64,000 nucleotides of DNA, from the NCBI GenBank assembly GCA_965227295.1, contig OZ245742.1, forward strand, positions 4,768,001 through 4,832,000. The letters run 5' to 3'. Both the position numbers and the translations under genes were made by a program. Below the pieces are notes generated by a model, which worked only from the letters and a program-made list of their open reading frames with translations, had not been told where the DNA came from and searched no databases. Positions 24,703-58,654 of this stretch are shown one piece after another. Each line of letters opens with the position of its first letter. Position 1 is the stretch's first letter. Source of the stretch: Leptonemataceae bacterium (GTDB lineage Bacteria; Spirochaetota; Leptospiria; Leptospirales; Leptonemataceae).

Positions 24703-25509
24703 ATGTGGTTAAAAACGAGTTGCGAACTCAACTTTGAGATTCAGGTTCCCACGCCCTTTGTGCTCATGCTCCGGCCGCGCAGCGGGGCGCAGCAGTGGAT
24801 CTCGAGCGAAGAGTACCGGCTCGCTCCCATCGTGCCGGTCTTCGAATTCACCGATCTCTACGGCAACCTCTGCCAGCGACTCATCGCGCCGCCCGGTACC
24901 TTCAGCATTCGAACGACGGCCGAGGTATCGACCGCCGATCAAATCGACCAGGCACCCGGCGCTCCGTTCGTGGAAATCGAAAACCTTCCCGACAGTGTGC
25001 TCACGTATCTGCTGCCGAGCCGCTACTGCGAGTCCGATCGTTTTCATCAAATGGCGGCTTCGATTACGGCCGGCTGCAATCCCGGTTACGATCAGGTGGC
25101 GGCGATCACCGACTGGCTGCGCGCAAGCATCACGTTTCAGCCCTTCAGCGGCGACGCGCAAATCTCCGCGGTGGAAGTGAACCAACGCCAGTGGGGTGTC
25201 TGTCGGGACCTCGCCCATCTCGGCATCGCGCTCTGCCGCGGCCTGAGTATTCCGGCACGCATGGTCGTCGGTTACCTGCACAATCTCGACCCCATGGATC
25301 TGCACGCCTGGTTCGAGGCTTACGTCGGCGGACGCTGGTATGCCTTCGATGCCACCCAGGCTACGATGCGCGGCGGCTACGTCGCCATCGGCTACGGCCG
25401 CGACGCCGCCGACGTCGCCCTCTACAATCAATACGGCCCGGCCATCTTTCCGTATCATCAGCAAGTGATGGTGGAGACGATCGCGAAACCCGCGCCGCGA
25501 GAAACATGA
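24703..25509 (+). CDS. Transglutaminase-like family protein
   Basis: [46 protein letters not shown]. Confidence 0.9.
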
Positions 25510-26231
25510 AGTAAATTGCGCAACCGTGAAAGGCCTTTTTTGGCTACGGCACCTGAAGAGTTGTGGATATTCGTTTTGCGAAGACTGTCCGCCTCGACCC
25601 GGACGTTGGTTGTGCGATTTCGAAACCACAGCGTTTCTTACAACGAAGACGCCGTTCCGGTCCGCTTTACCACTTTCCCCGACATGACCTCCGCCCGTCA
25701 ACTGGAACCAGCTGTACCCAAAAAAGTCTTAATCCAAACTGACCGCTACTTACTTCACGATCCGGGGCGTCTGCGAATACCCTGAACGTTTTCGGTAATT
25801 CAACAGCCGCGACTCGCAAAGTTTGCCGCGAGAAACATGGGATAAGTCGTCTAACTGCGGCGGCATTTTTCTGGCTACGGCACCTGAAGAGTTGTGGATA
25901 TTCGTTTTGCTAAGACTGTCCGCCTCGACCCGGACGTCGGTTGTGCAACTCAGAAACCACAGCGTTTCTTACGAAGAAGACGCCGGCCGCGAACGCGCAC
26001 CCGCTCCGCCCCGCGAATAGAGCGGGGCTCCGGGGTGCGCGTTCGCTTCATGGTTTTCCGAAATGAAGACGCCGTTCCGGTCCGCTTTACCACGCCCCCC
26101 TGCCCGACCTCCGTTCGTCAGCTGGAACCAGCTGTACCCATAAAAGGCTTAATGCACACTGACCGCTACTTACACCACGATTCGGGACGTGTTCGAACAA
26201 ATAAAATTTTTCCGGTAATTCAACAGCCGCG
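25494..26231 (+). repeat. Array A of ~330-bp tandem repeat family (about 2.2 units, one with hairpin insert)
   Basis: GGCTACGGC anchors at about 25542 and 25873 (331 bp apart). Shared blocks GAGTTGTGG, TTCGTTTTGC, TCGACCCGGACG, GAAGACGCCGTTCCGGT, CTGGAACCAG. Confidence 0.9.
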
Positions 26232-26261
26232 GGTCCTTGCGAACGGCCGGGGGTTTTTGTC

Positions 26262-57133: not shown

Positions 57134-57257
57134 CGAACAGTATAGAGTAACGATCTTTAGACGCGCCGCCTGAAGAAAAAGTTCAGCTTCAATACATGCT
57201 GGCTTGATTTTATTCATATATGTTGACCGATCGGCCGGTAGCCGCGAATCGGTCAAC

Positions 57258-57629
57258 ATGGCGGAACCGGTCCTGCTCTTCGGCGAATTTCTCCTGCGCA
57301 ACGGAGTCATTTCCTCCGCCCATTTGCTCGAAGCCCTGGAGTACCAGAAGGAAACCATGCGCGTCCTCTCGGTGATGGGTTTTCTGGAACACGGCCTCGA
57401 AGAAAACGATCGCAAACAACTCTTCGAACGTATTTCCTCCGGCGAAAGTCCCGAGGCCGCCGCCGCGGAACTCGGTTTCCTGAGCGCCGCCGAACTCGAA
57501 GACGTCTTTCGCGCGAACAAGGACTTCCGCCTGCCCGTGGCCGCTACTTACACCACGATTCGGGGCGTGTGCGAACGGACAAAATGTTTTCGGCAGTTCA
57601 AGAGCTGTGGTTCGCGGCGTTTACCGTGA
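57258..57629 (+). CDS. Small protein with MshEN-like motif; C-terminus read from repeat array D (possibly truncated)
   Basis: LFGEFLLRNGVISSAHLLEALEYQ; last ~30 aa are encoded by repeat sequence starting at about 57538. Confidence 0.55.
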   Translation: MAEPVLLFGEFLLRNGVISSAHLLEALEYQKETMRVLSVMGFLEHGLEENDRKQLFERISSGESPEAAAAELGFLSAAELEDVFRANKDFRLPVAATYTTIRGVCERTKCFRQFKSCGSRRLP

Positions 57630-58654
57630 GAAACGTAAGGTAAGTTGCAATATGGTGAAGGGATTTTTTGGCTACGGCTCTTCGGAGTTGTGGTGATTCG
57701 TTTTGCAAAGCACGCTGGAGTCGACCCGGACGTCGGATTGCGACTCAGCCATCGCAACGTTTCTCACGACGAAGACGCCGTTCCGGTCCGCGCCCCACAT
57801 TTCCCCGGCATGACCTCCGCTCGTCAGCTGGAACCAGTTGTAACCTTAAAAGGCTTAATTTACACTGGCCGCTACTTACACCACGATTCGGGGCGTGTGC
57901 GAACGGACAAAATGTTTTCGGCAGTTCAAGAGCTGTGGTTCGCGGCGTTTGCCGTGAGAAACGCAAGTTAAGCTGCAATATGGTGAAGAGATTTTTTGGC
58001 TACGGCTCTTCGGAGTTGTGGTGATTCGTTTTGCAAAGCACGCTGGAGTCGACCCGGACGTCGGATTGCGACTCAGCCATCGCAACGTTTCTCACGACGA
58101 AGACGCCGTTCCGGTCCGCGCCCCACATTTCCCCGGCATGACCTCCGCTCGTCAGCTGGAACCAGCCGTACCCACAAAAGGCTTAATATACACTGGCCGC
58201 TACTTACACCACGACTCGGGGCGTGTGCGAACGAACAAAATGTTTCCGGTAGTTCAAGAGCTGTGATTCGCAGCGTTTGCCGTGAGAAACATAATGTAAG
58301 CTGCTCAATCATGAAGCCATTTTTTTGGCTACGGCGAAGCGGGAGTTGTGGTGATTCGTTTTGCCAAGAATGCTGCGTTCGACCCGGACGCTGGTTGTGC
58401 GACTCAGCTATCGTAACGTTTCCCACTACGAAGACGCCGGGGACTTATGCTTTCCGCCGATGCGGAAAGCCGGCGGTTCAGAACTCTCGCTGAAGCGAGA
58501 ATTCTGCCGGTGCGCCCTACCATGCTCCCCGGCGTGACCTCCGTGGTCGCCTGGAACCAGTTGTAACCATAAAAGGCTTAGTATACATCGACCGCCACTT
58601 ACACCACGATTCGGGGCCTACTTGAACTAACAAATGTTTTCCGTAGTTCAAGAG
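57538..58654 (+). repeat. Array D of ~330-bp repeat family (about 3.3 units)
   Basis: Anchors at about 57670, 57998 and 58327 (328 and 329 bp apart). First two units nearly identical; third has a hairpin insert at about 58440-58506. Confidence 0.92.

Follow-up and report, generated by a model that had tools for sequence, protein, structure and literature searches.

The window analyzed here (64,000 nt; positions 4,768,001 to 4,832,000 of contig OZ245742.1, assembly GCA_965227295.1, from a Leptonemataceae bacterium, an uncultured relative of Leptospira) contains four tandem arrays of a ~330-bp non-coding unit, which are 4 of the ~113 arrays of one repeat family in this genome. Interspersed repeats have been described in other bacteria, and this lineage-specific family adds a new example of exceptional size. 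As the best explanation, to which we give about an even chance, it is proposed to be a lineage-specific, non-coding, interspersed mosaic repeat resembling BIME and BOX elements, in which short conserved blocks are candidate protein recognition sites. Bacteria commonly carry interspersed non-coding repeats, most of which lack an explanation. The present family offers a clean handle on them, with ~200 copies of a long unit with sharply bounded blocks in one closed genome. Further advantages are an older core element in sister species and the evidence that blocks are preserved where they stand. Were a binder or copying enzyme to be found, the family could show how a small dispersed element gives rise to arrays and whether or not the host benefits.

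Tandem arrays in the window

The arrays were located by pattern count, Tandem Repeats Finder, and a sequence model of the unit. In the window, 15 copies of the GGCTACGGC anchor were counted where 0.55 would be expected, and none of 100 shuffles reached 15. Eleven copies, all on the + strand, fall within arrays (25542, 25873, 29470, 29816, 54815, 55145, 55475, 55805, 57670, 57998, and 58327), and anchor-to-anchor spacings within arrays are 331, 346, 330, 330, 330, 328, and 329 bp. The copies at 1143 (− strand) and at 12063, 22412, and 25390 (+ strand) were set aside as non-members; unit-model matches all lie elsewhere, inside arrays. A model of unit nt 1–110 gave 12 matches in the window, all within the four arrays. 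Tandem Repeats Finder reported three of the four, with periods of 346, 330, and 328; array 1 was missed because a 65-nt hairpin insertion interrupts its period, and is clear by nhmmer and alignment. The 11 anchors, four arrays, + orientation, and 328–346-bp periods that an earlier note had read from the sequence alone are, by these three approaches, real.

Array limits were determined with nhmmer. Array 1 (25493–26242, + strand; also by alignment) holds ~2.2 units, beginning at unit position ~282 and ending at ~280, and is flanked by genes identified by their Pfam domains as transglutaminase-like (+ strand) and 7TMR-DISM/PAS histidine kinase (− strand). Its second unit contains a hairpin module, HP (25989–26046, + strand; HP core 26002–26033), bordered in the alignment by a copy of the GAAGACGCC block on each side. 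Array 2 (29314–30122, + strand; also by Tandem Repeats Finder and alignment) holds ~2.4 units of 346 bp, with a DUF1223 gene on one side and a beta-lactamase-family gene on the other. Two HP modules (29514–29571 and 29860–29917, both + strand) each stand in place of unit positions ~43–95, so that alignment bears out the earlier attribution of the 346-bp period to a hairpin.

Array 3 (54635–56085, + strand) comprises ~4.2 units of 330 bp by Tandem Repeats Finder and nhmmer, with nhmmer limits of 54711–56085 plus a hairpin head from 54577. This 5' head is an HP module (54577–54634, + strand) 19 bp past the stop codon of a short-chain dehydrogenase gene, and the array ends at unit position ~240, exactly at the stop codon of a convergent gene (56081–57520, − strand). 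In its last unit, positions ~38–57 are replaced by HP2, a module of two small hairpins (55841–55905, + strand); this second type of optional module was also seen at the edges of two other arrays. Array 4 (57538–58657, + strand) holds ~3.4 units of 328–329 bp, from position ~198 to ~267, and lies between two − strand genes.

Genome-wide distribution and relatives

With nhmmer, 327–334 matches in the source genome (G000, 93.6% complete) were grouped into 112–113 arrays. The unit is present as ~214 unit equivalents in ~113 arrays, totaling 74.6 kb, or 1.26% of the 5.94-Mb genome, and array size ranges from 0.2 to 7.5 units (median 2.0, 113 arrays). Such head-to-tail, non-coding units of variable copy number at several intergenic loci are of the minisatellite/VNTR type, a loose class.

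The BLASTN comparison with the genome and its relatives that the earlier note had proposed found the unit in 3 of 41 related genomes including the source genome, the other two being weak, partial matches in the same genus. When a 17-mer block was searched with up to two mismatches, 214 matches were obtained in the source genome vs 11 and 8 in the two sister genomes (scrambled-pattern controls, 0–2 per genome). A pattern scan of genome contigs gave eight loci: two are the sister genomes, and six, in unrelated taxa, are presumed to be chance matches. Scanning metagenomes with the 17-mer gave at least 119 single matches; among the matches listed, none of 80 loci extended beyond the 17-mer neighborhood. 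Plasmid and phage collections contained no match to the repeat.

Arrays sit close to gene 3' ends, the median distance from an array edge being 10 bp (n = 153). The contexts of 112 arrays were 50 convergent, 53 tandem, and 9 divergent; convergent gaps thus make up 50 of 112 array sites vs 834 of 4524 gaps (18%) genome-wide. Orientation was checked against replichore and transcription, as had also been suggested. The unit + strand is the lagging strand in 70 of 113 arrays vs 43 (p = 0.014), a skew found mostly in convergent gaps (35 vs 15), and the tandem contexts divide into 29 arrays co-oriented with the flanking genes and 24 opposite. No recurrent protein family was found among 219 distinct flanking genes, the largest cluster having three members.

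Mosaic structure of the unit

Near-invariant blocks separated by variable segments of almost fixed length, first noticed in the window, were seen in ~200 genomic copies. About one-third of unit positions, in blocks of 5–17 nt, are nearly unchanging, and the segments between them are close to saturation. The near-palindrome CTGGAACCAG is identical in 193 of 215 copies and the GAAGACGCCGTTCCGGT block in 165 of 223; segment 226–247, by comparison, takes 114 distinct forms in 147 copies. Variation is below 2% in 72 of 331 columns. The motif CGTT(T)CCGGT is repeated twice within the unit. Adenine-specific variation like that of a DGR was considered and rejected: variability is alike for the four consensus bases, and transitions (5583) are about as frequent as transversions (5222).

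The unit is a mosaic of module A (~80–110 nt), modules found only in the source genome, and optional hairpin modules. Module A occurs as solo copies in both sister genomes (at least 15 in G001 and at least 25 in G002), including two tail-to-tail doublets, an arrangement found in the sister genomes only. It was absent from 57 of 58 other relatives searched, with one weak match in the remaining relative. Module A is the older element at the base of the mosaic unit. The optional 58-nt HP hairpin was found in 44 copies, 43 of them in or beside arrays, with 21 at 5' heads and none at tails; compensatory changes are present at two of its pairs (CG 19/GC 13 and CG 25/TA 9).

Constraint on the blocks and proposed exchange between arrays

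Constraint was measured on 46 pairs of sister units from the same array (at least 88% identity, "sister" being defined by similarity and not by dated duplication), in which differences amounted to 1.3% in columns conserved in other arrays vs 16.7% in variable columns (Fisher p = 6e-136). Even among sister units in one array, divergence is thus 13 times slower in the conserved blocks than in the variable segments. Slow blocks could also result if the variable segments were mutation hot spots or if gene conversion were patchy, though gene-conversion tracts of 5–17 nt are judged unlikely.

Units of one array share a mean identity of 0.84 and units of different arrays one of 0.775, and the nearest relative of a unit lies in its own array for 61 of 198 units and in another array for 137. 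Movement of whole arrays as blocks was rejected, neighbor order being common to arrays in only 1 of 68 cases, as was a fixed phase or terminal redundancy of arrays, start and end phases being independent and widely spread. Matches between arrays of at least 93% identity and at least 120 nt number 27, chiefly over the conserved unit middle. As a separate observation, one unit carries an insertion sequence (HTH + rve_3 transposase) that is present in six copies, one of them in an array.

Because the blocks show neither a reading frame nor, the HP module apart, base-pair covariation (both considered below), they are most likely read by sequence. Under the mosaic-repeat explanation, each unit would combine several sites recognized by a sequence-specific protein, or by more than one, at the level of DNA or perhaps of unstructured RNA; the near-palindrome and the twice-repeated CGTT(T)CCGGT are candidate sites. 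Arrays would enlarge by local duplication, and single or part units would be swapped between loci by recombination or by an enzyme acting in trans. Several points sit uneasily with this explanation. No binding protein was identified, and the flanking genes offered no recurrent family; the lagging-strand skew does not follow from it; a host function is hard to reconcile with a family that, module A apart, is missing from sister species; and a + strand-only hairpin (3–10/18–25) with a T-rich tract hints at RNA.

Comparison with known repeats

BIMEs are described as binding sites for several proteins (PMC2817692), and the source-genome repeat is likewise non-coding, modular, and mosaic, with hundreds of copies, tandem clusters, and a position near gene 3' ends and in convergent gaps. 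REPs are described as 20–40-bp palindromes with regular spacing and alternating orientation (PMC2817692, PMC3733652). By contrast, the unit here is mostly non-palindromic, stands head to tail, and, at 330 bp, is ~10 times larger than BIME, BOX, or MIRU units; the earlier note had likewise judged it much longer than REP/BIME units. A palindromic hairpin is limited to the optional 58-nt HP module, and the unit folds as its shuffles do. The RAYT (Y1_Tnp) gene that goes with REP/BIME systems was not found in the source genome. Nor does orientation alternate: with arrays scored as same-strand, head-to-tail runs, a procedure that would split mixed-strand clusters, the nearest opposite-strand neighbors are 2.6–3.9 kb apart with genes between. 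The family is also, as had been noted, not a CRISPR, the variable segments lying inside a 328–346-bp unit at ~113 loci; most of the length of this unit is conserved, and short repeats alternating with unique spacers are lacking.

BOX elements of Streptococcus pneumoniae have the form boxA-boxB(n)-boxC, with modules of ~45–60 bp that are predicted to fold, and no enzyme is known to mobilize them. They resemble the present family as modular, intergenic, interspersed repeats with one module in tandem, and differ from its 330-bp unit, which lacks a folding signal and has no sequence relationship to them. MIRU/VNTR minisatellites of Mycobacterium have units of ~40–100 bp and reported small ORFs coupled to flanking genes. 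Direct tandem repeats at many intergenic loci, with unit number varying per locus, are common to both, whereas here no frame is kept and orientation is independent of flanking genes. Tandem repeats of Ldr/Sib-like type I toxin–antitoxin systems have a conserved small ORF per unit; here no such ORF is conserved, the frame being lost via single-base changes. IS-derived MITEs differ in that the arrays lack terminal inverted repeats at fixed ends. A survey of species-specific repeats classes ~11% as tandem and 19% as non-coding intergenic or of unknown origin, and cites the CIR motifs of Caulobacter as long repeats between genes that may serve in regulation or structure (PMC3372372). The passages considered describe no repeat with the copy number, unit length, and array form of the present family.

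Insertion and mobility

In each sister genome, the two genes on either side of array 2 adjoin or overlap one another, with an ATGA stop/start overlap in the G001 DNA. At this locus the array is a derived insertion between the two genes. A check for target-site duplication, based on this single, strongly diverged empty-site comparison, showed no visible repeat at the flanks of array 2. Synteny with relatives around arrays 3 and 4 is poor.

A purely selfish, non-autonomous mobile element, whose blocks are required by a trans-acting enzyme for copying or moving units and which brings the host no benefit, is a possible if somewhat unlikely account of the family. Candidate enzymes would be a recombinase, a single-strand transposase, or a reverse transcriptase (e.g. 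that of the genome's group II introns), and arrays would arise by repeated insertion beside resident copies or from multimeric intermediates. The large size of the family in a single lineage, its occupation of "safe" 3'-proximal gaps, the derived insertion at array 2, and the replication orientation skew (70 vs 43) all favor such an element, as do the 137 of 198 units whose nearest relative lies in another array. The spread, independent start and end phases are those expected of multimers cut arbitrarily. Ten RVT_1 genes were found in the source genome and none in the two sister genomes, a co-occurrence seen in one genome; the three of these ten loci tested are all group II introns.

Against a selfish element, no terminal inverted repeats or fixed ends were found. 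Arrays begin and stop at many different points of the unit, and an internal inverted match (unit positions 322–12 vs 166–186) does not coincide with the array ends. Searches for the Y1 transposase (PF01797) were negative in G000, G001, and G002 and positive in 6 of 14 control genomes. No transposase or recombinase family recurs beside arrays (219 distinct flanking genes), and a coordinate comparison placed none of the 10 reverse transcriptase genes in or adjoining an array. The earlier statement that no terminal inverted repeats or transposase were visible therefore stands, in the sense that none defines array ends and no such family recurs, and the HUH/Y1 transposase that it had suggested looking for beside copies was not found anywhere in the genome. 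Recent copies are few, as the 27 close inter-array matches indicate, and even decay would be expected of a selfish element, whereas sister units of the same array differ 13 times less in blocks.

A stronger form of the recognition-site explanation is clearly unlikely. Units would be selected ~330-bp platforms, each with about eleven regularly placed recognition blocks that are preserved copy by copy, and the 3'-end arrays a "functional satellite", e.g. loading or insulating sites for a putative sequence-specific protein or nucleoprotein complex, with the replication-linked skew part of its working. A bolder variant, in which arrays are copied from circular or multimeric RNA by one of the genome's reverse transcriptases, is unlikely.

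Tests for structured RNA

Rfam searches of the whole window at gathering thresholds gave no match, and a search of 54500–58700 with E up to 10 gave four chance-level matches (E 0.55–4.5). Folding z-scores were +1.8 and +2.2 for the two strands of one unit, with a mean of 0.10 over 12 units, and no base pair of the minimum-energy folds was common to more than 26 of 77 units. Global RNAalifold structures, computed for both strands, were discarded as not reproduced in single units and without energy signal. The top mutual-information pairs were adjacent columns, not Watson–Crick partners, and two candidate helices suggested by inverted matches in the consensus (1–12:166–177 and 91–102:283–294) were rejected on independent, non-compensating changes. 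For 19 diverged copies of module A, RNAalifold returned −1.1 kcal/mol and three pairs. The proposed check of the units by Rfam, folding, and covariation was thus negative on every count: Rfam match, energy signal, shared fold, and long-range covariation.

The hairpin at 3–10/18–25 contains three G·T pairs, so that it pairs on the + strand only, and is followed by a T-rich tract. Its variants retain pairing (pair 7:21 is GT in 144 copies and AT in 39), which hints at an RNA-level feature. Tandem small-RNA genes on the + strand, each unit with its own promoter and ending at this hairpin and the U-rich tract that starts the next unit, would account for these observations. The product would be a ~170-nt RNA acting via conserved single-stranded motifs, and the candidate promoter an ECF-like GGAAC-N17-GTC...TTAAT at positions 162–191, a motif judged by eye with no tool. 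A terminator scan picked the 3–25 hairpin with its T-rich tail in three window units, the blocks are strongly conserved, and an orientation independent of flanking genes (29 vs 24) would suit self-promoted units. This account is nonetheless improbable, with little prospect of being right. Besides the negative Rfam, folding, and covariation results, the 3–25 hairpin is not retained in sister-genome copies, terminator-like and promoter-like sites are at shuffle level (6 vs 6.3 and 1 vs 1.1, respectively), and many arrays start or stop within the supposed RNA. Of the three alternatives in the earlier note, a satellite-like or non-autonomous element and an array of protein-binding sites both fit the data, and a tandemly encoded ncRNA is unsupported.

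Reading frames and assembly

The consensus frame 10–301 is open in most copies, and 330 is divisible by 3. The length of segment 10–301 is 291 in 21 units, 292 in 19, 293 in 10, and 290 in 6, and therefore all three frames occur. Insertions and deletions of ±1 affect four separate parts of the unit, in several segments ~25–35% of copies, with no frame kept. Variability by codon phase is 0.125, 0.163, and 0.159, without a third-position excess, and a codon-usage gene finder picked no ORF inside the window's four arrays. Frame 10–301 was rejected on the indels and the codon-phase pattern, and the earlier reading of the unit as not protein-coding holds.

An assembly artefact, which the earlier note had named as a possible refutation, was examined with short-read contigs (two public runs of one study, possibly from the source sample). 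Array-internal unique pieces have a depth of ~150 vs 146–164 for the flanks; since internal depth equals flank depth, the unit variants are no inventions of the assembly. These independent contigs thus show unit-specific pieces at single-copy depth. Contigs on arrays 3 and 4 break within the arrays, so that copy order is neither confirmed nor contradicted. A decayed or unrecognized protein-coding repeat, or an assembly artefact, can accordingly be given almost no credence, the former being contradicted by the single-base length changes and the latter by single-copy depth and ~113 loci with distinct unit variants.

As the contigs on arrays 3 and 4 illustrate, short-read assemblies of this lineage will fragment at these 75 kb of near-repeats, spread over 113 loci, and the arrays could serve for strain typing. 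One contig passes directly from 55516 to 55849, leaving out one unit; its depth is well above single copy, and it may derive from other loci.

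A direct-repeat family in the window and across the genome

The ~330-bp unit belongs to a non-coding, modular and lineage-specific repeat family, whose blocks appear to be constrained copy by copy and which has expanded as head-to-tail arrays into 3'-proximal gaps. In the window, the anchor GGCTACGGC occurs 15 times against 0.55 expected. Eleven of these copies, every one on the + strand, lie inside the four arrays described in the earlier note (array 1, 25493-26242; array 2, 29314-30122; array 3, 54635-56085, with a hairpin-module head at 54577-54634; array 4, 57538-58657), at the spacing of 328-331 bp, or 346 bp in array 2, that had been reported; that observation was confirmed as a whole. 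The four copies outside the arrays are not family members. Tandem Repeats Finder detected arrays 2, 3 and 4 in the window and overlooked array 1, because a 65-nt hairpin insertion interrupts the period; array 1 was evident in profile searches and alignment.

In contigs assembled from short reads of two public runs, both from a single study, unique pieces inside the arrays had a depth equal to that of single-copy flanks, and the unit variants are therefore real; these contigs end within arrays, and copy order is not checkable from them. Window positions 55516 and 55849 are joined in contigs of both runs, with one 332-bp unit skipped and three other letters between. The depth of this junction is above single copy, and it reflects a different family locus or else variation in copy number within the population.

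The genome containing the window (G000) is a single contig of 5.94 Mb with 59.8% G+C. A profile built from the window's units gave 327-334 matches in this genome, falling into 112-113 arrays that together make up 74.6 kb (1.26% of the genome, ~214 unit equivalents) and hold 0.2 to 7.5 units each (median 2.0). Against our own codon-usage gene prediction (4525 genes), arrays were present in 68 of 359 predicted intergenic gaps of at least 600 bp.

Unit anatomy

Each unit consists of near-invariant blocks alternating with variable segments. Exact matches account for 165 of 223 copies of the 17-mer at unit positions 103-119 and for 193 of 215 copies of CTGGAACCAG, and 72 of 331 columns showed less than 2% variation; by comparison, segment 226-247 took 114 forms in 147 copies, and segment 38-52 took 124 in 198. 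The unit is also a mosaic, in that a 58-nt hairpin module (HP) takes the place of positions ~43-95 or sits inserted beside them. HP was found in 44 copies, 43 of them in or beside arrays and all but one sharing the array's orientation; 21 were at array 5' heads (19 arrays), 22 were internal and none were at tails. Two stem pairs are fully compensatory (CG 19/GC 13 and CG 25/TA 9), and selection acts on HP as a hairpin. Array 3, among other places, carries another optional module, which has two small hairpins.

Across the genome's arrays no fixed termini could be found. Start phases are varied, with clusters near unit positions ~45-100 and ~200-310, as are end phases, with clusters near ~80-110, ~225-250 and ~270-300, and the two are unrelated. 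A short hairpin at positions 3-10/18-25 includes three G·T pairs, which can form on the + strand only, and its variants stay paired; a T-rich tract follows it, and a terminator scan selected it in three units. It is not retained in the copies found in the sister genomes.

Coding potential and RNA structure

In the consensus, positions 10 to 301 form one open frame. Protein coding was rejected because single-base length differences are common in four distinct regions of the unit: among the 85 units that span segment 10-301, it measures 291 nt in 21, 292 nt in 19, 293 nt in 10 and 290 nt in 6. The non-coding nature proposed from the period was further borne out by third positions, which show no concentration of change, and the codon-usage gene finder called no genes inside the window's arrays.

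The unit matched no Rfam family at gathering thresholds, and a permissive scan returned four chance-level matches and nothing else. On either strand, the fold of one unit was less stable than that of 99-100 of 100 shuffles, the mean folding z over twelve units was 0.10, and no minimum-energy base pair was shared by more than 26 of 77 full-length units. The highest mutual information was between neighbouring columns of variable segments, which is linkage of local variants and not Watson-Crick covariation. Two candidate long-range helices, suggested by inverted matches in the consensus, were discarded, as their two sides vary independently. There is thus no sign of a globally structured RNA in the unit. 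With neither frame nor pairing to account for them, HP excepted, the blocks would be read by sequence, as putative sites where proteins recognise DNA or unstructured RNA. Of the three readings first offered, a satellite-like element and a binding-site array both fit these data, and a tandemly encoded ncRNA is without support.

Evidence for constraint and local duplication

Mean unit identity is 0.84 within arrays versus 0.775 between arrays, and 61 of 198 units have their nearest relative in their own array; local duplication or conversion therefore occurs. For most units the nearest relative lies outside the array. Neighbour order was common to different arrays in 1 of 68 cases, and near-identical stretches between arrays are few (27 at ≥93% identity and ≥120 nt, mostly the unit's conserved middle).

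Constraint was examined in 46 sister pairs within 27 arrays (≥88% identity), with column classes set on 220 units from other arrays. Sister pairs differed at 1.3% of conserved, 7.3% of intermediate and 16.7% of variable columns, and nearest pairs between arrays at 1.3% of conserved versus 18.4% of variable columns. Since decaying copies would change evenly, the aligned units suggest that the conserved blocks are held in place copy by copy. Mutation hot spots in the variable segments could also explain the contrast between blocks and segments, as could patchy conversion that restores the blocks.

Genomic setting

Of 112 arrays between predicted genes, 50 lie in convergent gaps (18% of all gaps are convergent), 53 in co-directional and 9 in divergent gaps; in co-directional gaps the unit runs along the genes in 29 cases and against them in 24. 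Measured from array edges, the median distance is 10 bp to the closest gene 3' end (quartiles 1-40, n = 153) and 79 bp to predicted gene starts, and nearly the whole gap is taken up by the array. No kinship was found among 219 distinct flanking genes, those within the window being ordinary enzymes and sensors.

By GC skew, the origin lies around 1.16 Mb and the terminus around 4.08 Mb. In 70 of 113 arrays the unit's + strand coincides with the lagging strand (p = 0.014), a skew that comes mainly from convergent gaps (35 versus 15); 53.6% of genes overall are on the leading strand.

In five places, window 56081-57520 and G000:C1:2189348-2190496, 3345408-3346505, 3002214-3004260 and 48769-51407, two same-strand arrays, whose unit phases overlap by 15-42 nt, enclose one or two genes that run on the opposite strand to the units. 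The arrangement resembles the insertion of a gene into a unit, accompanied by a short duplication; this may be coincidence, because array start and end phases cluster anyway.

Relatives and origin

BLAST searches of the unit against 40 relatives gave matches only in two genomes of the same genus (G001 and G002), both weak and confined to the first ~80 nt. A sequence-only model of this part (module A, the first ~80-110 nt) found 15 or more copies in G001 and 25 or more in G002; 57 of 58 other relatives searched had none, and one has a single weak match. In two of three sister-genome loci inspected, a solo 80-110-nt copy fills a 135-147-nt gap between convergent genes. Module A also occurs twice as a tail-to-tail inverted doublet (L006:1400-1608 in G001; L003:1458-1670 in G002), reminiscent of REPIN doublets; a search for a Y1 transposase came back empty for both genomes. 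The remainder of the unit was not found in the sister genomes. Within two mismatches, the 17-mer occurs 214 times in G000 versus 11 and 8 times in the sister genomes, scrambled patterns giving 0-2 per genome. No relatives were found in plasmid and phage collections or among the metagenome matches listed.

Gene order indicates that array 2 was inserted where it now lies: in G001 and G002 the two genes that flank it, a DUF1223 gene and a beta-lactamase-family gene, adjoin directly or overlap, the DNA in G001 reading as an ATGA stop/start overlap. Separately, the sister genomes, though otherwise collinear in this region, have no equivalent of window ~23900-28400, where array 1 lies between a transglutaminase-like gene and a 7TMR-DISM/PAS histidine-kinase gene; the interval is ~4.7 kb in G000 against 0.9-1.1 kb in G001 and G002.

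Associated enzymes and known elements

The earlier claim that no transposase attends the repeats stood, in that a Y1/RAYT transposase was not found in the genome and no enzyme gene accompanies the arrays. G000 carries ten RVT_1 reverse-transcriptase genes, several as identical copies (e.g. G000:C1 40883-41494, 4099046-4099660 and 2021332-2021955; loci L027, L029 and L030), and G001 and G002 carry none. All three RVT_1 loci tested, of the ten, are group II introns by Rfam. The possibility of a reverse transcriptase beside repeat copies fell away, with 0 of 10 adjoining an array, and the co-occurrence of these genes with the family rests on one genome, from which no correlation can be drawn. A 1155-bp IS lies within a repeat unit at G000:C1:1034815-1035970 (L025:316-1471), between two GGCTACG copies. 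It encodes a 356-aa HTH_29 + rve_3 transposase and has six genome copies at 94-100% identity, only the L025 copy being inside an array.

This kind of repeat is not new, since species-specific intergenic repeats are common, ~11% being in tandem, in a survey of 613 species (PMC3372372). Distinctive here are the length of the unit, its strictly direct arrays, the number of copies and the evidence of constraint in place. Among known elements the family comes nearest to BIMEs, BOX elements, MIRU-type minisatellites and long intergenic repeats of the Caulobacter CIR type, which it resembles in position, modularity and non-coding nature. It lacks the features that define REP/BIME (short palindrome, alternating orientation and RAYT gene). 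The Caulobacter long intergenic repeats have been linked to GANTC methylation sites. In the present unit, the GANTC words GACTC and GATTC lie in conserved blocks at positions 75-79 and 217-221 (e.g. window 55219-55223 and 55361-55365).
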